This document shows positions 2,461-35,424 of a stretch of 35,424 nt of DNA, piece by piece; the first letter of the stretch is position 1, and each line of letters starts with the position of its first letter. Made by a program: the position numbers and the translations under genes. Under the pieces are notes generated by a model. The model ran no database searches, was not told the DNA's origin, and saw only the letters and a program-made list of their open reading frames with translations. This stretch comes from a virus. Where the stretch lies: positions 1 to 35,424 of IMG/VR virus record IMGVR_UViG_3300014039_000010, one strand, 5' to 3'.

Positions 2461-2567
2461 ATTATACGCTAAAAACGTAATTTATAAACACTTTTTTTGT
2501 GCAAAACTTACAAAGTTGTGAAATTCGTTAAAAACGTATTGCAATTACGCTTGCAACGTAGTATTAT
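2461..2567. promoter_or_regulatory. Immunity-region switch with three copies of the TACGYT-N3-AACGTA operator, a rightward early promoter and a leftward repressor promoter
   Basis: Operators at 2465-2479, 2524-2538 and 2546-2560. Rightward promoter: -35 TTGCAA 2539-2544, 17-nt spacer holding the third operator, -10 TATTAT 2562-2567. Leftward -10 TATAAT is the reverse complement of 2461-2466. Confidence 0.6.
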
Positions 2568-3913: not shown

Positions 3914-3965
3914 TACGTTAAAACCGTAAAAAGTTGTTGACATTACGCTAATAACGTAGTAATAT
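3914..3965 (+). promoter_or_regulatory. Second early promoter with two operator copies
   Basis: Operators at 3914-3928 (TACGTTaaaACCGTA) and 3944-3958 (TACGCTaatAACGTA). -35 TTGACA 3937-3942, 17-nt spacer, -10 TAATAT 3960-3965. Geometry is the same as at 2539-2567. Confidence 0.6.
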
Positions 3966-3997: not shown

Positions 3998-4177
3998 TTG
4001 AATATAAGGGAAAAACGTGAGGAATTAGGCATGAGCCAGAAAGAGCTTGCAGAAAAAAGCGGAATCACGCAAAGCTTCTTATGCGACATTGAGCAAGGCA
4101 GAAGCAAGCCGAGTATTGACGTGGCAATTAAGCTTGCAAAGGTTCTGAAAGTTAAGGATATCAAGTTCTTTGAGTAA
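3998..4177 (+). CDS. Cro-like small XRE HTH protein (59 aa, TTG start)
   Basis: Not in the track because it is under 60 aa. RBS AAGAAAGGGGG lies 7 nt before TTG 3998. The HTH_3 is complete only from this start: IREKREELGMSQKELAEKSGITQSFLCDIEQGRSKPSIDVAIKLAKVL. Confidence 0.7.
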   Translation: MNIREKREELGMSQKELAEKSGITQSFLCDIEQGRSKPSIDVAIKLAKVLKVKDIKFFE

Positions 4178-4553: not shown

Positions 4554-5027
4554 ATGAAGTTATATGAAATCGACAATGCAATTTATGAATGCGTGAACGA
4601 GGACGGAGAGGTCATTGATCCGGAGAAGCTGGAAGAGCTTCAGATGGAACGTGACAAGAAGATTGAAGGTATAGCTTGCTGGATAAAAGAGCTTGCAGCA
4701 GAAGCAAATGCAATCAAGGAAGAAAAGTTGAAACTTGAGGCAAGACAGAAGGTTGCAGAAAACAAGGTGAAAAGCCTTAAAGGTTATCTTGCATATGCAC
4801 TGCAAGGGGCAAGCTTCCACACCGCAAAGGCATCTATATCATTCAGAAAGACGGAGGCTGTTGAGGTCACGCCGGACGGGTTGGAAAACTTAAAAGCTAT
4901 GCGTGATGATCTGCTTAAATACAAAGAGCCAGAACCGGACAAGACGGCAATTAAACAGGCACTTAAATCCGGTTTAAACGTAAGAGGTGTACAGCTTGTA
5001 CAGAATACGTCGACGATCATTAAATAG
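4554..5027 (+). CDS. Siphovirus Gp157-like protein (recombination-module accessory)
   Basis: 157 aa. MKLYEI...IDPE..L..L..E...KIE..A..IK.L..E..AIK.E...L is characteristic of the Gp157 family, and the gene sits upstream of a Sak4-like ATPase. Confidence 0.65.
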   Translation: MKLYEIDNAIYECVNEDGEVIDPEKLEELQMERDKKIEGIACWIKELAAEANAIKEEKLKLEARQKVAENKVKSLKGYLAYALQGASFHTAKASISFRKTEAVEVTPDGLENLKAMRDDLLKYKEPEPDKTAIKQALKSGLNVRGVQLVQNTSTIIK

Positions 5028-7470: not shown

Positions 7471-7606
7471 TTATGCGAGGCATGAAGTACGAGAGCTTGA
7501 AGCCTTTTTCAGTAGTAAATGGATGAAGAGGCTTATCAATATAGATGGCACGGAGATATTGGCAAGGATAAAAGGAGAGTTAGAGCATGAAAGAGAACTT
7601 GATTGA
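7370..7606 (+). CDS. Hypothetical small protein (78 aa), overlapping the tail of the CHC2 ORF by 101 nt
   Basis: RBS GGGGGTGGTAAGAAG precedes ATG 7370. The protein looks globular (ANAVVTQAARDY...ELEAFFSSKWMKRL). Confidence 0.55.
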   Translation: MNRNYQDLANAVVTQAARDYKHYHRRIEKNPADDYARHEVRELEAFFSSKWMKRLINIDGTEILARIKGELEHERELD

Positions 7607-9461
7607 GGCGATAAACAGTGAGGACGATTTTCAAGACGATCTTTTTTTTACGATTGTAGAGACGACAGACGTACTAGAAAAGGCGCAGTTTATCGAAGCG
7701 GTGCGCAGGAAGTGCCAGAAAGTAGGACGATTGCGCGAATTTAATAATTTATTAAAAGCATGGATCCTTAAATCTACGCAGTTGCAGAAGCAGGGCAGCA
7801 GCAATAAGACAGCCTTTACAGATGCACCACTTACGCTTAACTGTGGCAAGTGGATTGCAAACGATCTGGGCGTAATTATGACGGATATTACGGCGCAAGG
7901 TGTACCGGTCACGACAAGTGCCTGCCCGCATCCGATACTGCCGGTTGAGCGATACATAAACATTGACACGGACACGGAGAAAGTAAAGCTTGCATTCTTT
8001 AAGGATGGCAGATGGCGAGAGATTACGGTTGATGCAGGTACGGTTATGAATAAGAACAGTATTGTCCAGCTTGCGGATCGTGGCGTGCTTGTGACAAGCG
8101 AGAGTGCAAAAGAACTTGTGCGATATCTGAGCGATACGATCGCATTAAATGCACAGGAGATACCGCTTTATCGCAGTATAGGACGTTTGGGTTGGATAGA
8201 TGGCGACTTTATCCCGTACAACGATGCAGTCAAGTACGATGGCGATTTAGACTTCAAGAGCATATACGATAACGTGAGAAGTGCCGGTCGTCTGGACGTT
8301 TGGTACGATCACGTAAGAGAACTTCGCAAAGATATAAATATCCGCTTAGTGCTTGCAGCATCTTTCGCAAGTCCGCTGATTGAGGTATTAGGGGCATTGC
8401 CGTTTATCCTGCATCTGTGGGGTACTACCGGATTTGGTAAGACTGTATCGCTGATGGTTGCATCGAGCGTATGGGGCAATCCAGAGATGGGATGCTTAAC
8501 AAGGACTATGAACATGACAGCAAACGCGATGGCAAGGACAGCTTGCTTTTTGTACAACGTGCCATTTTGCGCGGATGAATTGCAGCAGATCAAGCAGAAT
8601 TGGGGTAATTACGACCAGCTAGTCATGTACTTAACAGAAGGTATCGACCGAGGACGTGCAAAGGCAAGGGGCGGCGTCGAGCAGACAAAGACGTGGCGTA
8701 ATTCGTTTATATTCACAGGAGAAGAGCCGATCACGAAAGGAGCATCCGGGGGCGGCGTTAAGAACAGGGTTATCGAGATTGAGTGTGAGAATAAGATCAT
8801 CAAAGATGGTAATATGACCGCGAACCTTGTCAAGGCGAACTACGGACACGCGGGAAAGCTTTTTATTCAGTATTTGAGTCATTTAATTGAGACAGACAAA
8901 CAAAGTATCGTTGACGACTATAAAAAGCTGTTTAAGGGCATTTTAGAAGCCACAGACACGACGGATAAGCAGGCACTATCAATGGCTTTGATGCTACTTG
9001 CAGACAAGATCGCTTGTGAGTGTATCTTTGATGATGAGCCGCTGACGATCGACGATGTAAAGCCGTACTTAGTGAGTGAGAGTGCCGTGCGTGTTGAGGA
9101 CAGAGCATATGATGAGCTTGTGTCTCTTATCGGTCGAAACGTCAATAAATTCAGTGAGTTCTCGACAGATGCATGGGGAAGATTGTCCGATGACGTGGCA
9201 ACGATCAATAAGCAGGTGCTGGAGCAGGAGTTGCAGAAGCTGGGCTTTGATTTTGGAAGTGTAAAAAAAGGCTGGGATAAAAAAGGCTACATCATAAAAA
9301 ACAGTGCGGGCAGATATGTACACCAAACACGAGTAAATGGCGTTAGAGGTAATTATATCAAGATCAAGTTGCCAGATGGTATGAACTTTGAGGAAGTTAC
9401 GGACGAAAAAGATATACCATTCGTGCAGTATGAGCAACAAAGTCTTGCGTTTAGTAAATAG
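7587..9461 (+). CDS. SF3-type replicative helicase / replication initiator (DUF927 or VirE-like P-loop NTPase)
   Basis: 624 aa. Walker A GTTGFGKT, followed by VASSVWGNP, and Walker B CADELQ. It lies downstream of the CHC2 protein and directly upstream of the iteron region. Confidence 0.7.
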   Translation: MKENLIEAINSEDDFQDDLFFTIVETTDVLEKAQFIEAVRRKCQKVGRLREFNNLLKAWILKSTQLQKQGSSNKTAFTDAPLTLNCGKWIANDLGVIMTDITAQGVPVTTSACPHPILPVERYINIDTDTEKVKLAFFKDGRWREITVDAGTVMNKNSIVQLADRGVLVTSESAKELVRYLSDTIALNAQEIPLYRSIGRLGWIDGDFIPYNDAVKYDGDLDFKSIYDNVRSAGRLDVWYDHVRELRKDINIRLVLAASFASPLIEVLGALPFILHLWGTTGFGKTVSLMVASSVWGNPEMGCLTRTMNMTANAMARTACFLYNVPFCADELQQIKQNWGNYDQLVMYLTEGIDRGRAKARGGVEQTKTWRNSFIFTGEEPITKGASGGGVKNRVIEIECENKIIKDGNMTANLVKANYGHAGKLFIQYLSHLIETDKQSIVDDYKKLFKGILEATDTTDKQALSMALMLLADKIACECIFDDEPLTIDDVKPYLVSESAVRVEDRAYDELVSLIGRNVNKFSEFSTDAWGRLSDDVATINKQVLEQELQKLGFDFGSVKKGWDKKGYIIKNSAGRYVHQTRVNGVRGNYIKIKLPDGMNFEEVTDEKDIPFVQYEQQSLAFSK

Positions 9462-9462
9462 C

Positions 9463-9730
9463 GTAAGTCAAAATGTAAGACATTAGAAACCTAGTATTTA
9501 TGCGGCTTTAGAGTATATATTTATATAATGTCTTACATTTTTACATGACTTACATATATTATATATATTTTATAGAAAAAATTCTTAAAGCTTATCTTTT
9601 AAGCTAATATAAAATATTTTTTATATATGTGCAGAAAAAATGTAAGAATGTAAGACCATTAGTATTTATGCGGGTTTACGAGGATTTTTATGTAAGACAA
9701 AATGTAAAAGTCTTACATAGAATGTAAGAA
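9463..9730. repeat. Putative replication origin: about 10 copies of the 8-9-mer ATGTAAG(A/T)C in both orientations around an AT-rich core
   Basis: Forward copies at about 9473, 9640, 9648, 9690 and 9722. Inverted copies at about 9530, 9547 and 9710. TAGTATTTATGCGG at 9492-9505 and 9660-9673. The AT-rich stretch is 9556-9635. There is no ORF. Confidence 0.6.
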
Positions 9731-9741
9731 GGGAGAGCGAA

Positions 9742-12190: not shown

Positions 12191-12243
12191 TACGCTAAAA
12201 ACGTAATAAAATACTTGCAATTACGTTGTGAACGTAGTATAGT
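12191..12243 (+). promoter_or_regulatory. Third early promoter with two operator copies
   Basis: Operators at 12191-12205 (TACGCTaaaAACGTA) and 12222-12236 (TACGTTgtgAACGTA). -35 TTGCAA 12215-12220, 17-nt spacer, -10 TATAGT 12238-12243. Confidence 0.6.
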
Positions 12244-13814: not shown

Positions 13815-14750
13815 ATGCAGAAATTTGGTATTGATATTTCAAAATGGCAAAAGGGTTTTGATTTTGACAAGGCAAAGGCAGAGGGCGTGGAGTTCATTAT
13901 CTTGCGTGGCGCATATTCAAATAGCAAGGATTCTTGCTTCGAGGATTTTTATAAGTCATGCAAGGACAGGGGGATCCCAATCGGTGTCTATCATTACTCA
14001 ATGGCGAAGTCTGTTATGGATGCAAAGAAAGAAGCAGAGCTTATGCTTGATGTCTTAAAGGGCAAGCAGCTCGAGTATCCAATTTACTTAGACGTAGAGG
14101 ATGAGACACAGGCGAAATTAGGAAAGTCGGTACTTACGGCTATCATTAAGACATACTGTGACACGCTGGAAGATGCAGGTTATTATGCAGGCATTTATAG
14201 TACGTACAGTTATCTTAACAGCTACACGAATATTGCGGAGCTGTGCAAGTATGATAAGTGGATAGCGCAGTGGCACACAAAGTGCAGTTGTCCGATTGAC
14301 TATGGCATGTGGCAGTTTGGGGGCGAGACAAACAAGATCCGCTCAAACAAGATTGCGGGCGTTACTTGTGACCAGGATTACGCATACTTCGATTATCCGT
14401 CTATTATGCGTAAATCCGGTTTAAACGGCTTTTCTAAGTCCGAGGGTACAAATACACCACCTGTACAGGAAAAACCTCTTAAATCGGCTTTGGACGTTGC
14501 TAGAGAGATATTGGATGGCAAGTGGGGGAACGGTGCAGACAGAAAAGCAAGGCTTACTGCTGCCGGATACAACTATGACGAGGTACAGGCGAAGGTCAAC
14601 GAGCTTTGCAAACCACAAAAGACAGTAGATCAGCTTGCACGTGAAGTTATCGCGGGGCAGTGGGGTACAGGCTTGAATCGCAAGAACAGACTTACACAGG
14701 CGGGGTACGATTATGCCGCAGTACAAAAGAGAGTAAATGAGTTATTGTAG
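13815..14750 (+). CDS. Endolysin: GH25 muramidase with two C-terminal CW_7 (Cpl-7-type) cell-wall-binding repeats
   Basis: N terminus FGIDISKWQ...FIILRGAY...DVE matches GH25. The two repeats are GKWGNGADRKARLTAAGYNYDEVQAKVNEL and GQWGTGLNRKNRLTQAGYDYAAVQKRVNEL. Confidence 0.9.
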   Translation: MQKFGIDISKWQKGFDFDKAKAEGVEFIILRGAYSNSKDSCFEDFYKSCKDRGIPIGVYHYSMAKSVMDAKKEAELMLDVLKGKQLEYPIYLDVEDETQAKLGKSVLTAIIKTYCDTLEDAGYYAGIYSTYSYLNSYTNIAELCKYDKWIAQWHTKCSCPIDYGMWQFGGETNKIRSNKIAGVTCDQDYAYFDYPSIMRKSGLNGFSKSEGTNTPPVQEKPLKSALDVAREILDGKWGNGADRKARLTAAGYNYDEVQAKVNELCKPQKTVDQLAREVIAGQWGTGLNRKNRLTQAGYDYAAVQKRVNELL

Positions 14751-15744: not shown

Positions 15745-15753
15745 ACAGAACAG

Positions 15754-15786
15754 GGCTACGCTTTATGTGTAGCCTTTTTTCTTTTT
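15754..15786 (+). terminator. Rho-independent terminator
   Basis: GGCTAC 15754-15759 pairs with GTAGCC 15769-15774, followed by TTTTTTCTTTTT. Confidence 0.7.
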
Positions 15787-15789
15787 ATA

Positions 15790-15816
15790 TGCTAAAATGA
15801 CGGTATAAACGTAATA
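15790..15816 (+). promoter_or_regulatory. Putative late promoter (extended -10 TGCTAAAAT) overlapping the late box ATGACGGTATAAACGTAATA
   Basis: TGn-TAAAAT at 15790-15798. The box at 15797-15816 matches 22752-22771 at 19 of 20 positions. Confidence 0.4.
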
Positions 15817-19381: not shown

Positions 19382-19588
19382 ATGATTAAGAATTTCATCG
19401 ACGATATGATACCGGAGTTTGGGTATGATTATGTGATCGGACATTGCCTTTGCAGTGAGTACGACTTGCGTAACAAGGCAAATCGTGAAGAGGACGAGGG
19501 CAAGAAGCGCAGATACTTAAAAACGGCGCAGATGTACAAGAAGAAAGCCGAAGCATTGACAAGGGAGAGGATTGACAATGGCTTATGA
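19382..19588 (+). CDS. Hypothetical small protein (68 aa)
   Basis: ATG 19382 lies 8 nt after GAGGA. The track GTG start at 19367 is within the RBS. Confidence 0.5.
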   Translation: MIKNFIDDMIPEFGYDYVIGHCLCSEYDLRNKANREEDEGKKRRYLKTAQMYKKKAEALTRERIDNGL

Positions 19589-21611
19589 TATCACGGAAGC
19601 TTTCGAGGATATCGAGCTTGCGCTAATTAAATCTATGCGTGCGAATATGCAAAGGCATATCGACGACGAGTACGACGAGGGCATGAACTGGACGCAGTGG
19701 CAGGCAGAGATGCTTGCCGGGTTATCGCAGTATCGAGCCGAGAATCAAGACGTGCTTAAAGGGTACATGGGCAAAATGAACAGCGAGCTTGCCGGGGCAA
19801 TCCGTGATGCATATGCCACAGGAGAAAGTGAGCTTGAAATCGAGCTTTTGAAGCAGATACAAAAGGGATATACGCCGCCTAAAGACGGAAAGAAGGTTAA
19901 TATGCAAGGTGCTTTTTTTCGTAACAATCAGAGAAAGCTCAATGCGCTTGTCAAGGCTACGACAAGCGATATGAAAAAGGCGGAAACAGCACTTTTGCGT
20001 ATGAATGACGACATATATAGGCAGACTATATTTAAGGCGCAGATGTTCTATAATACCGGTGCAGGCAGTATGTGGCAATGCGTAGATATGGCAACGAAGG
20101 ACTTCCTTGCAGCAGGGTATAATTGCGTACAGTACAAGAACGGCGCAAGGGTGAATATCGCAAGTTATAGCGAAATGGCGTTAAGGACTGCAAACAAGCG
20201 TGCAAATTTGATGGGACAGGCAAACTTCCGCGAGAAACACGGTATGCATCTTGTCAAAGTCAATGCACGTGGTACGGCGTGTCCCTTGTGTCTGCCGTAT
20301 CTTGGGAAAGTGTATGTTGACGATGTGTACGGCGGCGGCACTGCTGAGGAAAGCAAGTCAAGCGGATATCCGTTGCTTAGTATTGCAGTAAAGGGCGGGC
20401 TTTTTCATCCAAACTGTAAAGACGCTTGCAGTACGTACTACGAGGGCATCAATCAACCGCCCAAAGAGGTCACGGACGAACAGGCAAAAGAGATCAACCG
20501 CCGATACAATCTGGAGCAAACGCAAAGATACTACGAGCGCAATTACAGAAAGAATGTCAGACTTGCTAATGGCAGCTTGACAGAGGAAAACGTCAAGAAG
20601 TATTCAGCACGTGCAAGCGCATACAAAAAGAAGTTGACTGATCTGTGTGATGCAAACAGTGACGTGCTTCGACTTGACAAGCAGAGGCTTTCGCTACATG
20701 GCGTTTTAAGCGTTGATAATAAGGGTAGGCTTAGTGTTACACCTAAAGCGAATAAAAATGCAACCACGGGCATTATACGCGATTACAACGGTACATTAGC
20801 AACGAAGCTGGGTAAAGATCACTATGATAATATATGCGACAAGGTAGATAAGTGCAAGGACAAGGATCTTGTTGCGTTGTGGCAAGCGCACGCAGATCAT
20901 ATCGGAGTTGGAAGCACTACAAAAAAAGGTGCATATGCTATGAGTGGTAGTATATACTTAGATATTGAGAGGGTAGCAAAAGGCGGCATGATTGAAAAGC
21001 CATATCAGACAGCATTCCATGAGTGCGGACACGTCATTGACGGAAGAGCGAGAAGAAATCTGCAAACGCAAGGAGTTTTTGCAAGCCATTTTTCTGGCGC
21101 ATATAAAGACGGACTATTCCCGCAAACGATCAAAGACGAAGTGCAAGAGTGGGTTATGCGTTATGACAAGGAGTTGAAACAAGCGTTCAAAGATCATGCA
21201 GGCGATGTTGAATGGTTCAGACAGAACGGACATATAGGCGAATGGAGTTACGACAGGTATAAAAACGGATATGCGACGGCAAGCGAAGTAATACCAAAGT
21301 ATCGTAAATCTATGGCATATAATGCAGTCGCAAAAGAATTGAGAAGCTATGATGCAATAGCGGTTGCTGATTTGTGCGATATCGTAGAGGGTGCAACAAA
21401 CGCAAAGATAAGCGTAGTTGCAGGACACGGCGCGAAGTACTGGAAAGATAGGACTGTCGGCGGCATTGCAGATGGACTTGCAACAGAGGCATTTGCGGAG
21501 ATCACGGACAGTACGTTTGCGAATGAAGAAAGTCTGGACTTAATTAAAAAGTATCTGCCTAAGAGCTACGATGTTTACAAGGAAATGGTAAGGGAGATGT
21601 TAAAGCAATGA
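19578..21611 (+). CDS. Head-morphogenesis protein (MuF / SPP1 gp7 family) fused to a C-terminal HEXXH metallopeptidase-like domain
   Basis: ATG 19578 follows the RBS AAGGGAGAGG. The MuF core includes ...TACPLCLPYLGKVY...GGLFHPNCKD. After a coiled linker comes a roughly 280-aa C-terminal domain carrying FHECGH (nt 21018-21032). Confidence 0.8.
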   Translation: MAYDITEAFEDIELALIKSMRANMQRHIDDEYDEGMNWTQWQAEMLAGLSQYRAENQDVLKGYMGKMNSELAGAIRDAYATGESELEIELLKQIQKGYTPPKDGKKVNMQGAFFRNNQRKLNALVKATTSDMKKAETALLRMNDDIYRQTIFKAQMFYNTGAGSMWQCVDMATKDFLAAGYNCVQYKNGARVNIASYSEMALRTANKRANLMGQANFREKHGMHLVKVNARGTACPLCLPYLGKVYVDDVYGGGTAEESKSSGYPLLSIAVKGGLFHPNCKDACSTYYEGINQPPKEVTDEQAKEINRRYNLEQTQRYYERNYRKNVRLANGSLTEENVKKYSARASAYKKKLTDLCDANSDVLRLDKQRLSLHGVLSVDNKGRLSVTPKANKNATTGIIRDYNGTLATKLGKDHYDNICDKVDKCKDKDLVALWQAHADHIGVGSTTKKGAYAMSGSIYLDIERVAKGGMIEKPYQTAFHECGHVIDGRARRNLQTQGVFASHFSGAYKDGLFPQTIKDEVQEWVMRYDKELKQAFKDHAGDVEWFRQNGHIGEWSYDRYKNGYATASEVIPKYRKSMAYNAVAKELRSYDAIAVADLCDIVEGATNAKISVVAGHGAKYWKDRTVGGIADGLATEAFAEITDSTFANEESLDLIKKYLPKSYDVYKEMVREMLKQ

Positions 21612-21763
21612 ATGAACTATTAAAAAAGTATGAGGATGCATTTAATGAGTGTTTCCCGCTTATGCTTATGAGAGGCATGAGCGAAGAGGACGTAAAGGTT
21701 GCTATTGAAAAATGCTTGAAAAATGGCAAGCCTTATGAGGTAGATGCAGAAGGTGATTATTAA
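21608..21763 (+). CDS. Small protein (51 aa) translationally coupled to the MuF fusion; candidate cognate immunity or inhibitor protein
   Basis: ATGA start/stop overlap at 21608-21611. Below the track cutoff. A strong terminator follows. Confidence 0.45.
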   Translation: MNELLKKYEDAFNECFPLMLMRGMSEEDVKVAIEKCLKNGKPYEVDAEGDY

Positions 21764-21767
21764 GCAC

Positions 21768-21871
21768 AAAAAAGAGCAGGCGGGAGGTATCGCTTGCTCT
21801 TTTTCGTAAGAGGAGAATTAAATCATGTCACTTCTAATCACTTACAAGAAGGGAAAGGTTAATAAGAAGAT
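21768..21871 (-). ncRNA. Candidate minus-strand small RNA of about 100 nt
   Basis: Minus-strand -35 TTGACA (reverse complement of 21901-21906), exact 17-nt spacer, -10 TAAAAT (reverse complement of 21878-21883). The transcript would end at the bidirectional terminator. It holds no meaningful ORF. Confidence 0.3.
21773..21804. terminator. Bidirectional rho-independent terminator
   Basis: 10-bp stem, AGAGCAGGCG 21773-21782 with CGCTTGCTCT 21791-21800 (one G-U pair). A-run upstream and T-run downstream. Confidence 0.75.
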
Positions 21872-21937
21872 ACTTTTATTTTACATCTTTGTTAAAAAAA
21901 TGTCAATGTGGCTTACGTGATTACATCGAAAAAGTCC

Positions 21938-22212
21938 ATGTAAACCAAAATGTAAGTCAAAGAAACGTAGTATTTATGCGGTGTTCATACATTTGTCTTG
22001 CAATCTTCCATAATTTTTTCAATTACAAAAAAATATTAGTAAATATATAAAAAATAAAAGAGCTGATATAAAAATCGCTATATGAATATATAAATATAAA
22101 AATTATGTATTTATGTATATATATGTAATAAAAAGGCTTATAAACCCTTATAAATACTACATTCTTGGTGTCTTACATTTTGACTTACATTTGACTTACG
22201 TTTTACATTTTC
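21938..22212. repeat. Second iteron and AT-rich region, related to the 9463-9730 origin
   Basis: A direct copy of the origin unit lies at 21938-21981 and an inverted copy at 22145-22188, flanking an AT-rich core of about 160 bp. Further GACTTAC(A/G)T iterons lie at 22181-22210. Confidence 0.6.
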
Positions 22213-22217
22213 CAGTA

Positions 22218-22245
22218 TTGATTTTTGAAAAATGTATGTTATAAT
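22218..22245 (+). promoter_or_regulatory. Sigma-70-type promoter with an extended -10, for the tandem-HTH gene
   Basis: -35 TTGATT 22218-22223, 16-nt spacer, TGT-TATAAT 22237-22245. Confidence 0.6.
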
Positions 22246-22275
22246 GAGCAAAAACATACAAAACGGAGGATTAAC

Positions 22276-22740
22276 ATGAAGATTAGTTCTGAAAAATTAA
22301 AGTATCACAGAAGAAAGACAGGAAAGACGTCACAGGAGTTTGCGGACTTGTGTGGCATTCCAGTTGGTACATATTTTGCATATGAATCCGGCTGGCGAAG
22401 TCCGAGAAGCGAGCGGATACAGATTATTGCAGACAAATTAGGCGTACTAAAAGAAGATATCACAGAGAGCGACACAGATTACAGGATGATGCAGATAAAT
22501 AAGGGGTGTTTATCAAGCGATGATATCCTAAAAGAGCGAGTTGAGATTGACACAAATCTTTTGAAAGTGAAAAGGCAACAGTATTTTGGGAATGCAACCG
22601 TGTTTGCAAAGTATCTGGGTGTCAGCGTTGCGACATATTACGGCTACGAGAAAGGAAAAGTCAAACCGACAAGGCTTGTCATCAGAAAAATGTGCAATGC
22701 GCTTGATTTGCAGTTTATGAGGCTTGTAAAGACAGTATAA
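22276..22740 (+). CDS. Tandem-HTH (two XRE-type HTH_3 domains) DNA-binding protein
   Basis: ATG 22276 follows the RBS ACGGAGGA. HTH1 is RRKTGKTSQEFADLCGIPVGTYFAYESGWRSP. HTH2 is RQQYFGNATVFAKYLGVSVATYYGYEKGKVKP. The track TTG start at 22225 lies inside the promoter. Confidence 0.75.
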   Translation: MKISSEKLKYHRRKTGKTSQEFADLCGIPVGTYFAYESGWRSPRSERIQIIADKLGVLKEDITESDTDYRMMQINKGCLSSDDILKERVEIDTNLLKVKRQQYFGNATVFAKYLGVSVATYYGYEKGKVKPTRLVIRKMCNALDLQFMRLVKTV

Positions 22741-22746
22741 TCATAA

Positions 22747-22775
22747 TTGACATGACGGTATAAACATAATATAAT
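22747..22775 (+). promoter_or_regulatory. Consensus promoter (TTGACA-17-TATAAT) for the scaffold and capsid operon, with the late box in its spacer
   Basis: -35 at 22747-22752 and -10 at 22770-22775. GACGGTataAACATA at 22754-22768 occupies the same position as the early operators. Confidence 0.6.
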
Positions 22776-22820
22776 GACATTAAGAACGTCGACGGGACGA
22801 TAAAACGGGAGGTCATTTAT

Positions 22821-23438
22821 ATGGCAGATATAAATAATACTGCTACACAGCAGGACAACGGCACGCAGGCACAGGGCGGTAACAGTGCAAATAACACACA
22901 GACACAGACACAGACAGCTGGAGTTGATTATGACAAGATACAGGCTATGATCGACAAAGGTACTACGCAGAAAGAAAACGCAATCCTTAAATCGTACTTT
23001 GAACAGCAGGGTATGAGCGAGGATGATGTTAAATCTGCAATCGGTGATTGGAAATCACGTAAGCAGACACAGGCACAGGAGCAGACAGACAACTTTAATA
23101 AGTTGCAGGAAAGCAACAAGGCTTTGCAGGAACGACTTACACAGGAGCTTCTTAATAAGCAGGCGTTCAACGATTGCTTGGACTTAGGAATTGACAAGAA
23201 CACAATCCCGCACGTGATTAAGTGCGCAGACTTCACAGATGCGATCAACGAAAAGGGAGAGGTCAATGCAGAGAAGGTAAGAGCAAGCGTAGAGCAGGTA
23301 CTTAAAGATGTACCGGCTTTCAAGAGTTCCGCAAGCGAGAAGCAGGGCTTTAAGGTTGGAATCAGCGGAGAGCAGGACGACGCAACCGAACAGGAAAACG
23401 TCTTGCGTAAGGCTTTCGGTCTTGCACCTAAAAAGTAG
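22821..23438 (+). CDS. Scaffolding protein
   Basis: 205 aa with a Q/T-rich N terminus and a coiled-coil body. Directly upstream of the major capsid gene. Confidence 0.75.
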   Translation: MADINNTATQQDNGTQAQGGNSANNTQTQTQTAGVDYDKIQAMIDKGTTQKENAILKSYFEQQGMSEDDVKSAIGDWKSRKQTQAQEQTDNFNKLQESNKALQERLTQELLNKQAFNDCLDLGIDKNTIPHVIKCADFTDAINEKGEVNAEKVRASVEQVLKDVPAFKSSASEKQGFKVGISGEQDDATEQENVLRKAFGLAPKK

Positions 23439-23452
23439 AAAGGAGTAACAAA

Positions 23453-24502
23453 ATGGGCAATAACATTGCATTAGCGAAGGTTTACACAAATCTTCTGGAT
23501 GAAGTTTATCAGCAGTCGGCATTGACTGCAAATCTGGAATCAGATGCGACACTTGCAAGAGCAGGTGCAAATGCAAACGAGATCGTCATTCCTAAGCTGT
23601 CAATGGACGGACTTGCAGACTACAACCGTAACAGCGGCTATGTAGACGGCGACGTTGAGTTGACATGGGAGACAGCTAAGTTCAACTATGAAAGAGGTAG
23701 ATCCTTCACAGTTGACGACATGGATAACGAAGAGACACAGAACATTGCGTTCGGTCGTCTTGCGGGCGAGTTTATCCGTACAAAGGTTGTTCCAGAGCTT
23801 GACGCATTCAGATTCGCTATATATGCGGGTACAAAGGATGCAGGCACAGCAACAGGTACACTGTCAGATGGCGCAGGCGTAATCGCAGCACTTAGAGCTG
23901 CTACATCTGCTATGGACGAGGCAGAAGTACCGATGGAAGATCGTCATCTCTACATCACACCGACACTGTACGGACTTGTACAGGATCTTGACACTACTAA
24001 GTCAAGAGAGGTACTGGGAAGATTCGCTTCTATTACACAGGTGCCGCAGACAAGATTCTACTCTGCTATTGACTTGCAGGATGGCAAGACAGAAGGCGAA
24101 GAGAAGGGCGGATTTAAGAAAGCAGATCACAAGCAGGAGTACACAGTTTCTTCTGCACAGACAGATTTTATCGTAACTGCAAAGCCTGCATCTGTACAGA
24201 AGGTTACACATAATGGCGAATCCGTGGACTTTTCATACGATGCAACTAGCGGCAAGGTTACGATTGCCTCTGTATCTTCTGGCAAGGTTGTAGTTATCTA
24301 CGACACAGGTGTTGAGCTTAACTTTGAGATCATTCACAAGCCAGCAGTATTGCAGTTCACAAAGCACGCAGTACCGAAGATCATCGCACCGGAGCAGAAC
24401 CAGAACGCCGATGCTTGGAAGTACGGATATCGTAACTACGGTCTTTGCGATACTTACGAGAACAAGGCGGCAGGTATCTACGTACATAAGAAGGCACTGT
24501 AA
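23453..24502 (+). CDS. Major capsid protein
   Basis: 349 aa. Position after the scaffold gene and an SPP1 gp13-like N terminus (IALAKVYTNLLDEVYQQSALT). Confidence 0.85.
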   Translation: MGNNIALAKVYTNLLDEVYQQSALTANLESDATLARAGANANEIVIPKLSMDGLADYNRNSGYVDGDVELTWETAKFNYERGRSFTVDDMDNEETQNIAFGRLAGEFIRTKVVPELDAFRFAIYAGTKDAGTATGTLSDGAGVIAALRAATSAMDEAEVPMEDRHLYITPTLYGLVQDLDTTKSREVLGRFASITQVPQTRFYSAIDLQDGKTEGEEKGGFKKADHKQEYTVSSAQTDFIVTAKPASVQKVTHNGESVDFSYDATSGKVTIASVSSGKVVVIYDTGVELNFEIIHKPAVLQFTKHAVPKIIAPEQNQNADAWKYGYRNYGLCDTYENKAAGIYVHKKAL

Positions 24503-33954: not shown

Positions 33955-35424
33955 ATGAGCTTAAAAGGTAGTGCTACTATCGAATTGACAAATGCAGACG
34001 GTAGCAAAGAGATTATTAAGCATGACAATCTTGTCACAAATGCGGTGAATGACTTGTGCATGTCTCAGCGTGGCGAGATGGCAACAATATTGAAAATTGT
34101 CAATAACGGAGACAGCTATGCACAGGCACTTTTTGGCGGTCTGTTACTTTTCGATGAAGAGCTTGACGACGACGCGAATAGTTACTTTTTGCCGACGGTT
34201 AAATGTACCGGGTATGCATCACAGGACGCATATGCAGGACTTGATACGTGTAGAGGTTCGTTTAATGCGTCCGAGGGCGGCGTACAGGATGACGGAAGCT
34301 ATAAGTTTGTATGGGATTTTGCAACATCGCAGGCAAATGGCACGATCAAGTCGCTTGCACTTGTGCCAAACATGATGGGGCAGATTGGGCTTACGTCAAG
34401 CAAGGTTAGTGGTGAAGCTAAGACTATGTATATGAAGCGAACAAATACTGAACCGTTTGATAGCAGAGGATATATGCTTCCGGATGGCACGGTTGATGGT
34501 TTCCAGGCAAATGGACTATATATTGTTGCTGTGGTTGACGATATCGCATATGCTGCATCCGCGGATAACATTGGATATCGAGGATCCGGTGCAAGTTCTA
34601 GCTTATGCATCACGAACAACGGCGGAATATTAAAGCTTTTGCGATTTAAGCTTGGCGCAAGTAGTATCGCACTTACGGATAAAGTGTGTCGTGCGAGCTA
34701 TATTGATACAGTTGACGTCCAACTTCCAACAGATTTTATGAGTACGATTACTTATCAGAATTATCAAAATTTAATTGCGTTAAATTACGACAAAGATAAC
34801 AACAAAATTATCGTTTTTCCATGTGCAAGAGTAAGCAATTTGCCCGCAAATTCGACACTTAAATATTGTGAGATTGATCTAAGTAATAACTACGCTGTTG
34901 CTGTTTACACTTTTACAAATAACACAGGTGGTAGTATCCCAAGCAGTGGAAAGACTGGTATCAATTCATGTGAGTATAAATTTTTCGTCATGAAAGACTA
35001 TATTCTTGTGACTTCTAAATCATCGTCTAATGAGTACAAGATGTATTCTGTGAAGCGAAGCGATAATACGCAGATCAAAGAGATACAGGACATGAACGGG
35101 GCGGCGTTGCAACTTGGTTTAGATATTGGATTTTGTCCTGTTTTTTGGAAAAACAATATCATAGTAATCAAATACAGGTTAAGTGCTAATTACAGGTATC
35201 TTGTGATTGATCTTGCAACAGGAAAGATGAAAGACACTAACACGGCGATAATGTCGGATTTTAACAACATCGACATCGGACATGAATCCGTATTCGCTAT
35301 GACAGGACAGAACTTGACATATAGTATGAGCTTTAATCCTTTTGTGCTTTGTACAAAGAATAATCTCGATAGCCCAGTCACGAAAACAGCAAGTCAGACG
35401 ATGAAGATCACGTATACGCTGTCC
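33955..35424 (+). CDS. Distal tail / receptor-binding-module protein. It runs off the window end and continues at 1..135, for 508 aa in total.
   Basis: ATG 33955 lies 1 nt after the previous stop. I translated 490 codons by hand without a stop. It is absent from the track because it has no in-window stop. Confidence 0.7.
   Translation, partial: MSLKGSATIELTNADGSKEIIKHDNLVTNAVNDLCMSQRGEMATILKIVNNGDSYAQALFGGLLLFDEELDDDANSYFLPTVKCTGYASQDAYAGLDTCRGSFNASEGGVQDDGSYKFVWDFATSQANGTIKSLALVPNMMGQIGLTSSKVSGEAKTMYMKRTNTEPFDSRGYMLPDGTVDGFQANGLYIVAVVDDIAYAASADNIGYRGSGASSSLCITNNGGILKLLRFKLGASSIALTDKVCRASYIDTVDVQLPTDFMSTITYQNYQNLIALNYDKDNNKIIVFPCARVSNLPANSTLKYCEIDLSNNYAVAVYTFTNNTGGSIPSSGKTGINSCEYKFFVMKDYILVTSKSSSNEYKMYSVKRSDNTQIKEIQDMNGAALQLGLDIGFCPVFWKNNIIVIKYRLSANYRYLVIDLATGKMKDTNTAIMSDFNNIDIGHESVFAMTGQNLTYSMSFNPFVLCTKNNLDSPVTKTASQTMKITYTLS
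35347..35424. repeat. 78-bp terminal overlap identical to 1-78 (circular closure of the contig)
   Basis: Base-by-base identity with the first 78 nt. The ORF phase is preserved across the junction. Confidence 0.9.

Follow-up and report, generated by a model that had tools for sequence, protein, structure and literature searches.

The window analyzed here is the whole 35,424-nt stretch of DNA held as IMG/VR record IMGVR_UViG_3300014039_000010, the genome of a temperate siphophage. Between its MuF-like minor head protein gene and its scaffold gene lies a gene for a 154-aa protein with two tandem XRE-type helix-turn-helix (HTH) domains, and a 20-nt box, termed here the late box, is found at the starts of both late operons. 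A previous sequence-only reading of the window had made the tandem-HTH protein the dedicated regulator of both late operons, acting through this box. The co-occurrence of box and protein implied by this pairing was not found across relatives, and the comparison of their sequences has shown that the two dissociate in both directions. The picture that we favor, with only slightly more belief than doubt, is that of an insert carrying a second origin-type element and an accessory local repressor, in a genome whose late promoters are gated by immunity operators.

Late box, immunity operators and slot protein across relatives

Relatives were found by protein and DNA searches and their sequences are labeled with L-numbers; the slot is the MuF-scaffold junction, which in the window is the segment 21764-22820. 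The window-type lineage (L001-L006 and L108) has a tandem-HTH protein 87-99% identical to that of the window, and the tandem arrangement recurs in the lineages of L007/L008 (60% identity) and L009 (49%; L093 and L097 are the same contig as L009). In the single-HTH lineages (L010-L012, L015, L109 and L014, the last on the contig of L095) the slot gene encodes approximately 94 aa, and in L013, on the contig of L102, the slot is without an HTH gene. The tandem-HTH protein is rare, with six clusters among 5.8 billion protein sequences, and each cluster with a readable gene context sits in the MuF-scaffold slot. A metagenome scan with the scaffold profile added L108 and L109 and yielded nothing beyond the lineages already found, and of the 11 hits to the exact box pattern in IMG/VR, two came from true relatives (L097 and L102) and nine from unrelated, chance-like contexts.

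At the late start, the sequence TGnTAAAAT followed by GACGGTATAAACGTA is present in L001, L002 and L009, all with a tandem-HTH gene (49% identical in L009), and in L013, with no HTH gene at all. L014, which has an unrelated single-HTH gene, shows the same late start with a one-base variant of the box, GACGTTATAAACGTA (GACGTT). The late-start box is thus conserved whatever the slot holds, and is independent of the slot occupant. In the other direction, L007/L008 and L009 have kept the tandem-HTH gene while the spacers of their scaffold promoters (ACAGAATAATAACTGT in L007 and TAGAACGTAAGTTGTG in L009) are without the box. An 11-mer common to the scaffold promoter region and some other place of the same genome was searched for in each relative, and the window lineage alone had one.

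The scaffold and capsid genes of the window are preceded by a TTGACA-17-TATAAT promoter, which is the sole perfect consensus match in the window (0.42 matches are expected with one mismatch allowed) and begins 7 nt after the end of the HTH gene (coordinates of all features are given in Table 1). A near-consensus promoter occupies the scaffold position in L007, L009 and L010-L015 and is absent from the 42%-identity group of relatives (L016-L089). The core of the late box, GACGGTATAAACATA (22754-22768), lies at spacer positions 2-16 of the scaffold promoter, in a register identical to that of the early operators at 2546, 3944 and 12222, and the box recurs at 19 of 20 positions upstream of terS (15797-15816), where no match is expected by chance. 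The sequence-only reading was correct on these three points, namely the perfect promoter, the recurrence of the box and its placement at the early-operator position of the spacer.

The early operator, TACGYT-N3-AACGTA, gave 23 strand-hits at up to two mismatches, compared to 6.3 expected. Its seven strong sites (2465, 2524, 2546, 3914, 3944, 12191 and 12222) lie in three early/middle promoters that share a single architecture, consisting of the -35 element, a T, the 15-bp operator, one base and the -10 element, and the scaffold promoter is identical in plan. Two copies of the early operator, at 2462 and 12188, share an identical 20-mer as well, so that the 19/20 identity between the late boxes is nothing special in this genome. 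When 35,332 positions were scored with a weight matrix built from the seven strong sites, the terS box matched at 10 of 12 positions with 13.25 bits, ranking 9th of 35,332 with 0.23 expected; by sequence alone it is a credible weaker operator. The scaffold box scored lower and is weighed below. An operator-like site, GACATTAAGAACGTC, is located 22 bp downstream of the first scaffold site, which is the spacing of the early pair 2524/2546, and may be a second operator of the scaffold promoter. This agrees with the CI-type promoter positions, in which one site is at spacer positions 2-16 or over the start and a second is 22-31 bp away. In addition, an early promoter of the relative L096, TTGACAT-TACGGTATAACCGTA-ATATTAT, is identical at 25 of 29 positions to the scaffold promoter with its box.

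At terS, the box is not in a promoter spacer: it abuts the extended -10 element TGCTAAAAT, after a terminator, and would therefore cover the transcription start. The positions of the predicted sites at both late starts suit a repressor, not an activator. The arrangement of terminator, extended -10 element and box is kept in L001, L002, L009, L013 and L014, and in L002 it is followed first by a ParB_N gene and not by terS. The 20-nt box may most simply be read as a late-class variant, GACGGT-N3-AAC(G/A)TA, of the immunity operator. The asymmetric half-sites that had been thought to suit two non-identical HTH domains (GACGGT/AACGTA) form an ordinary imperfect palindrome, ACG-N7-CGT. The simplest assignment would have the box read by the immunity system rather than by the slot protein. 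The CI homologue on the contig of L014 (L095; 64% identical, found by tblastn) shares both the recognition helix ARTTYADYE and the operators with the window, and conservation of the Cro-like protein is 67-74% across L092-L095; a peptide-pattern search of IMG/VR for CI relatives found none. An operator-like box abuts the -35 element of the scaffold promoter in L007, L011, L013 and L014.

A further operator-like box, GACG(G/T)TAA(A/T)A.CG(G/T)A, was observed 84-99 nt into the scaffold open reading frame (ORF) of L007, L009, L010, L011, L013, L014 and L109, and is absent from the window lineage. The residues that it encodes vary (DGKSV, DGKSG, DVNNG, DVNTG and AGNNG) and second codon positions differ, yet the bases critical to an operator do not change, a pattern suggestive of selection at the DNA level. 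This intragenic site may act as a roadblock or a looping partner. Another operator-like site, TCCGGTTTAAACGTA, lies inside the Gam-like gene (4968-4982) and is the best matrix match outside the training set; the relatives have GACGGTTTAA(C/G)CGT(A/C) in this gene (L092:3160, L093:7068, L094:1942 and L095:6907). The 5' leader of the scaffold gene contains the motif (A)GAACG.C.AC...TAAAACGG(G/A)AGG (22783-22815), with equivalents in L009, L014, L018 and L023; the 70%-identity group retains it, and so in part does the 42%-identity group, despite unrelated promoters.

The segment between the MuF-like and scaffold genes

We propose that the segment 21764-22820 would be an insert in the head-gene cluster, built in order of a terminator, an outward promoter with a possible small RNA, a second origin-type element, the XRE gene and a strong restart promoter. 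The two best consensus promoters in the genome flank the second origin-like element and the HTH slot, and face outward. The hairpin at the left border has a fold energy of -22.6 kcal/mol on the + strand (z = -5.2), and the minus strand folds too; the A-run before and the U-run after the hairpin make it a bidirectional terminator. It is retained at this place in L006, L007, L009, L011, L013 and L014, the same relatives in which an equivalent of the leftward promoter scores 9-11/12. Transcription from the leftward promoter to the terminator would give a candidate small RNA, in the fold of which an unpaired, anti-Shine-Dalgarno-like UUCUCCUCUU stands immediately 5' of the hairpin. The relative positions of the leftward promoter, the CCUCC/CUCCU motif and the terminator are constant in seven lineages, and the RNA body diverges. 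A search of Rfam over 21500-23000 gave nothing above threshold, the small RNA having only a sub-threshold match to BTnc231.

The 470-bp spacer that precedes the HTH gene is more than a promoter region. The 9-mer G(A/T)CTTAC(A/G)T has 10 exact copies in the genome, compared to 1.05 expected, and all 10 lie in two clusters, at 9473-9718 (in region A) and at 21950-22201 (in region B). Most of the block CAAAATGTAAGTCAAAGAAACGTAGTATTTATGCGG in the left arm of region B is common to region A (9465-9505), the block common to both regions being CAAAATGTAAG.CA..AGAAAC.TAGTATTTATGCGG, and each region has an AT-rich core (12.8% G+C in region A). Region B is thereby shown to be a paralogue of region A. Iteron clusters directly 3' of the helicase gene were also found in four relatives (L092-L095), and the iterons of region B are present in the MuF-scaffold spacer of L007, L009, L011, L013 and L014. 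We regard region A as a putative primary origin with a layout like that of the Staphylococcus aureus pathogenicity islands (SaPIs), and region B as a putative second origin; the origin activity of either region is what we infer from these features. The iterons most likely belong to the helicase rather than to the HTH protein, because they are identical across lineages with different slot proteins or none, and they track the helicase, which is 80-83% conserved across lineages. Its HTH_56 domain would be the part that binds them. The iterons were also considered as sites of the HTH protein, which was rejected as the leading explanation; they persist in L013, where the gene is missing, and follow the helicase.

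The HTH gene has its own extended -10 promoter, the -35 element of which begins 10 bp after the last right-arm iteron (22208 vs 22218), and both L007 (60% identity) and L009 (49%) retain this promoter. No immunity-type operator was detected in or near it, none of the top 25 operator-matrix scores being within 21800-22280. An inverted repeat, TGTATGTT-N12-AACATACA (22233-22260), is kept in L007 and absent from L009, and the latter weakens the suggestion that it is an auto-operator of the HTH protein. The ATG of the HTH gene is 30 nt past the -10 element with no ORF between, and there is no terminator between the gene and the scaffold promoter. HTH_3 of Pfam matched two stretches of the 154-aa protein (65 bits, compared to a cut-off of 23 bits), and its two HTH halves are 29% identical to one another. 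The AlphaFold2 model contains two five-helix bundles (helices 5-55 and 81-143) and a poorly defined helical linker, with a mean predicted local distance difference test (pLDDT) score of 77 and a predicted template modeling (pTM) score of 0.44, a value at which the relative orientation of the domains is undefined. Several claims of the sequence-only reading were upheld here: that of a strong bidirectional terminator closing the terminase-portal-MuF operon by the fold energy and the flanking A- and U-runs, that of an extended -10 promoter at 22218-22245 by its sequence and conservation, that of independent transcription by the terminator in front together with this promoter, and that of two XRE-type HTH domains by the HTH_3 score and the structure prediction.

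HTH domain 1 is 35% identical to the HTH of CI. The recognition helices of the tandem-HTH protein, PVGTYFAYE and SVATYYGYE, are without the Arg of the CI helix ARTTYADYE, and recognition helix 1 is nearly invariant across the tandem-HTH lineages. In the PDB, Foldseek matched nothing but XRE proteins of one domain and found no tandem template, and PADLOC and NCBIfam gave only generic HTH matches under their cut-offs (RmrA, CapH, RstR and Wmk); C.BclI, C.AhdI and a controller-protein model are among the structural and profile matches. In comparisons with the known late activators of Firmicutes (RinA, ArpU, Alt and LtrC types), the protein matched only generic HTH families, and the gene upstream of terS is PAPS-reductase-like (phrog_424).

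The MuF-scaffold junction is supported as an accessory or cargo hot spot by the predicted genes found there in other phages. In the 42%-identity group the slot holds, among others, Tad2-like (anti-Thoeris domain), crAss001_48-like, Rha/ORF6C and ORF6N genes, while an iteron array and a scaffold promoter of sigma-70 consensus type are both lacking, and in Eggerthella phage PMBT5 (L188:1409-4233) it holds six genes, including those for Lar-like and pentapeptide-repeat proteins. Each slot gene of the 42%-identity group, and the scaffold gene too, has a hairpin and then TTTTTATA(C/G)CCCAA(A/G) in front of it, as was observed at L053:7591-8057 and before the scaffold genes of L016, L018, L036 and L058. 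This repeated motif could be a late promoter of a non-sigma-70 type.

Proposed wiring, competing explanations and known counterparts

In a lysogen, the CI-like repressor would bind the operator pairs of the early and middle promoters. The weaker late-class operators, one over the terS start and one inside the scaffold promoter, would be bound in the same way, possibly with the Cro-like protein taking part. Once the phage is induced, transcripts begun at terS would end at the 21766-21807 hairpin, shielding region B, and the consensus promoter at 22747 would restart transcription into the scaffold and capsid genes, the products of which are needed in bulk. The tandem-HTH protein would be a lineage-restricted and replaceable occupant of the slot that does not act via the shared box, and most likely a local repressor of its own promoter, perhaps also of the scaffold promoter or the iteron region. 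Since its sigma-A promoter is free of an immunity operator and no terminator follows the gene, the HTH gene could be expressed both in the lysogen and in early infection. We infer here which protein binds which site and when the HTH gene is expressed.

Several observations weigh against this picture. The scaffold box matches the operator matrix at 9 of 12 positions with 8.2 bits (rank 15th, with 6.6 expected by chance), so that its case rests on register and context. In several lineages G is consistently the base at position 1 of the late boxes, and in most of these boxes also at position 5, which makes a separate conserved binding protein conceivable. In six of the seven lineages of the 70%-identity group an HTH gene is directly upstream of a consensus scaffold promoter, and the HTH-less L013 has the strongest CI-type palindrome at the scaffold promoter (15.6 bits), a single case which hints that the slot protein contributes to the control of this promoter. 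Binding of the iterons by the HTH_56 domain is also an assumption.

The model of the sequence-only reading, in which a tandem-HTH monomer would place one domain on each half-site as the dedicated repressor of both late operons, draws on the position of the gene 7 nt from the box-carrying promoter, on the 19/20 copy of the box at the terS start, on the systematic difference of the late boxes from the early operators at positions 1 and 5, and on the likeness of HTH domain 1 to CI, by which a related specificity is conceivable. We consider it improbable, given the late-start box of L013 without a slot HTH and its GACGTT form in L014 beside an unrelated one, the spacers without a box where the tandem HTH is kept (L007/L008 and L009), the imperfect palindrome of the CI-operator type, and the recognition helices without the Arg of CI. 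Somewhat better placed, though still unlikely, is an explanation in which slot HTH proteins would gate the scaffold/capsid promoter only, via a lineage-specific sequence in or beside it, with the immunity boxes as a second layer. By this account the protein would act as a timer of the downstream operon, resembling the controller (C) proteins of restriction-modification systems, or would couple capsid expression to events at the adjacent iteron region. The succession of HTH gene and near-consensus promoter in six of seven lineages, with a different spacer in each and no intervening terminator, would fit such gating, as would the strong CI-type operator of the HTH-less L013 and the controller proteins among the structural and profile matches. 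However, no lineage was found to share a motif between its HTH and scaffold promoters, neutral drift would equally give divergent spacers, the inverse correlation between a slot HTH and a strong CI operator comes from one case, and recognition helix 1 hardly changes while the spacers differ. That the slot HTH proteins, single or tandem, form an undescribed class of capsid-operon gatekeepers, placed between an origin-like iteron array and a consensus sigma-A promoter and relieved by initiator binding or fork passage at the array or by the neighboring small RNA, is a long shot; if true, a temperate siphophage would couple head-protein synthesis to DNA replication without a late activator.

The HTH protein could instead regulate the second origin-like element, or its outward promoter or small RNA, by way of initiator access, fork arrest or a switch from theta to concatemer replication. 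The abutment of the HTH promoter on the last iteron is consistent with this, as are the fact that in L007, L009, L011 and L014 the HTH gene stays together with the terminator, leftward promoter and iterons, and the proposal that SPP1 oriR stalls forks and triggers the replication switch (PMC6316719). We nonetheless give this explanation a poor chance, since L013 has region B without an HTH gene and the iterons are identical where slot proteins differ greatly, following the conserved helicase. A moron or anti-defense role had been offered as a fallback in the sequence-only reading, and the part of it that stood is the accessory nature of the slot, with its Tad2-like, Rha/ORF6C and Lar-like cargo. 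For an anti-defense locus, with the HTH protein as an Aca-like autoregulator of an anti-defense gene or as an anti-defense or exclusion factor in its own right, expressed from the prophage, the Tad2-like genes of distant relatives, the Lar-like and pentapeptide-repeat genes of PMBT5 and a promoter without an immunity operator, which could be active in lysogens, can be cited. The Aca regulators at the corresponding junction of Mu-like Pseudomonas phages likewise are small HTH genes in an accessory slot of the head region with a strong promoter. Here, however, there is no acr-like gene upstream in the operon, the space between promoter and HTH start being free of ORFs and the sole nearby ORF (31 aa) being unconserved, and no inverted-repeat operator is conserved across relatives. 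PADLOC matched a generic HTH only, and in profile, sequence and structure searches the HTH fold was all that the protein had in common with known Aca or Acr families. The Aca-like part of the fallback did not stand, and we regard an anti-defense locus as highly improbable.

Immunity repressors acting at many genome sites are represented by gp71 of mycobacteriophage L5, with its 'stoperators', and by the c-repressor of phiC31, with its CIR sites. The phage analyzed here resembles these systems in having one operator family over early, middle and late units, with copies also inside the scaffold ORF of relatives, about 85-100 nt from its start, and differs in that its predicted sites are palindromic 6-3-6 operators, mostly in promoters, and not asymmetric 13-mers oriented with transcription. 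The C repressor of phage P2, a 99-aa single-domain dimer, binds direct repeats flanking a -10 element. It is the best solved relative of the tandem-HTH protein by sequence, a weak match covering residues 5-48 only (E = 0.002; PDB 2L49 / 2XCJ), and its turn and recognition helix read GVPYGTLSYYESG, compared to GIPVGTYFAYESG here. A closer counterpart in architecture, likened here by its domain plan, is phiCDKH01_17 of a Clostridioides difficile phage, an XRE phage repressor with two HTH domains in one polypeptide from a temperate Clostridia phage, which is expressed in the lysogen and represses phage promoters (PMC11172241). That protein is the putative main repressor and is encoded in the lysis-lysogeny region, whereas the protein described here is encoded in the head-gene cluster of a phage with a separate CI-like repressor.

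The SaPI origin layout comprises a primase, a helicase and then iterons flanking an AT-rich center (PMC9371898). Region A conforms to this layout: it is immediately 3' of a helicase gene with a C-terminal DNA-binding domain, a primase-like gene is upstream, and iterons in both orientations surround an AT-rich core. The differences are that the helicase is of the DUF927 family, with only a weak match to the Cch1 model of the staphylococcal cassette chromosome (SCC), that the iterons are 9-mers, and that the element is duplicated elsewhere in the genome.

For region B, the counterpart is the second origin of phage SPP1. On the SPP1 map, oriR lies between gene 7 and gene 11, so that the head order of portal, MuF-like gene, insert, scaffold and capsid is shared with the window. 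The gene numbering in the published account is consistent with this position, the segment consisting of genes 8-10 and oriR in the virion-assembly cluster; oriR and three morons break up the virion-assembly genes, with transcription signals on either side, both origins are bound by gp38, the origin-binding protein, and the role proposed for oriR is to stall forks and so bring on the change to concatemer synthesis (PMC6316719). Region B resembles oriR in its repeats and AT-rich unwinding element, its position away from the initiator gene, its interruption of the virion-assembly gene order, the transcription signals on both sides and the non-structural moron alongside. SPP1 differs in being virulent, with gp38 and a DnaB-type helicase, whereas the phage here is temperate with a self-loading-type DUF927/HTH_56 primase-helicase; an XRE regulator is carried as cargo here, the promoter for the restart is a sigma-A consensus with an immunity-type operator, and region B is a putative origin known from sequence.

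Each element thus has known counterparts, in SPP1 oriR, SaPI-type origins, multi-site immunity operators and two-HTH XRE repressors, and what is new is the combination of a conserved second origin-like element, an HTH slot and late promoters with immunity-type operators. If the late promoters are gated by these operators, this phage group would run its late genes without a dedicated late activator, and consensus sigma-A and extended -10 late promoters under immunity operators would be a simple wiring that is unusual among temperate Firmicutes phages. A second iteron element in the head cluster would extend the oriL/oriR arrangement of SPP1 to temperate phages with a different initiator, making the proposed role of the second origin in the concatemer switch testable in another system. 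For annotation, an HTH gene beside a shared motif is insufficient to pair a regulator with a site, as the relatives separated the two here.

Genome setting and neighboring features

Nucleotides 1-78 of the window are identical to 35347-35424, indicating a circularly assembled genome of 35,346 bp (42.8% G+C). The recombination and replication genes include Gam-like, Sak4-like, primase-like and DUF927/HTH_56 primase-helicase genes, and the late set comprises terS, terL, portal, MuF-like, scaffold, major capsid and tail genes. By capsid protein, the nearest cultured relatives are Eggerthella phage PMBT5 and Ruminococcus phage RG-TP1 (44-48% identity); blastn of 21600-23000 against GenBank phages gave no match.

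Table 1. Coordinates of the features in the window
Feature	Position	Strand	Details
Serine integrase gene	624-1964	minus	
CI-like XRE repressor gene	1957-2427	minus	
Immunity operators O1-O3	2465..2560		between the CI-like gene and the rightward early promoter
Operator pair	3914..3958		promoter TTGACA-T-[operator]-G-TAATAT; precedes the Cro-like gene
Cro-like gene	3998-4177		
Primase-helicase gene	7587-9461		DUF927 and HTH_56 domains
Region A, putative primary origin	9442..9735		iterons in both orientations around an AT-rich core; starts at the primase-helicase stop codon
Operator pair	12191..12236		promoter TTGCAA-T-[operator]-G-TATAGT
First late operon start	15752..15816	+	terminator 15752-15776; extended -10 TGCTAAAAT 15790-15798; box 15797-15816 (core 15799-15813)
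terS start codon	15832		ATG
MuF-like minor head protein gene	19572-21611		
51-aa ORF	21608..21763	+	last of the terS-portal-MuF transcription unit, between MuF and hairpin
Candidate small RNA	21765..21871	minus	about 105 nt, leftward promoter to terminator
Bidirectional intrinsic terminator	21766..21807		arms 21766-21782 and 21791-21807; 17 nt, 88% complementary
Shine-Dalgarno sequence (strong) and 31-aa ORF	21825..21920	+	right after the terminator
Leftward promoter	21878..21906	minus	TTGACA-17-TAAAAT, 11/12; second-best sigma-70-type match in genome
Region B, putative second origin	21900-22210		MuF-HTH spacer
Region B, left arm	21910..21981		iterons GGCTTACGT, inverted GACTTACAT, block CAAAATGTAAGTCAAAGAAACGTAGTATTTATGCGG
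Region B, AT-rich core	22020..22140		candidate DNA-unwinding element; 14% G+C
Region B, right arm	22170..22208	+	four direct iterons G(T/A)CTTAC(A/G)T, start-to-start 7-12 bp
HTH gene promoter	22218..22245	+	TTGATT-16-TGtTATAAT; TG at 22237-22238
Tandem-HTH gene	22276..22740	+	154 aa, two tandem XRE-type HTH domains
Scaffold/capsid promoter	22747..22775	+	TTGACA-17-TATAAT; 12/12 to consensus
Late box	22752..22771	+	ATGACGGTATAAACATAATA
Second, weaker operator-like site	22776..22790	+	GACATTAAGAACGTC; 5.8 bits; covers the transcription start
Scaffold gene	22821..23438	+	phrog_2303, E = 8.7e-28
Major capsid gene	23453-24502		follows the scaffold gene; phrog_422, E = 1.3e-71

The 51-aa ORF before the terminator is found at the same position in relatives (59% identical in L009 and L014, 94-96% in L001-L004) and has no Pfam or PHROG match. 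At the position of the 31-aa ORF after the terminator, a 31-aa gene is called in L001, L003, L004 and L006, and in L007, L009, L011, L013 and L014 nothing but the Shine-Dalgarno sequence and ATG is kept, the ORFs that begin there being unrelated and 2 to 21 codons long. The 31-aa ORF probably does not encode a conserved protein. A type I toxin with an antisense RNA was considered for this ORF and rejected, as the peptide is unconserved beyond the closest lineage and has no clear membrane segment.

A NUMOD4/HNH_3 homing-endonuclease-like gene, absent from the window, lies between terS and terL in the close relatives L001 (2108-2650) and L003 (2610-3152). The lysis module is split, with the endolysin gene (13815-14750) upstream of terS and remote from an r1t-type holin gene (about 34097-34375) that adjoins the integrase; in a relative, the corresponding coordinates are L090:11874-12062.

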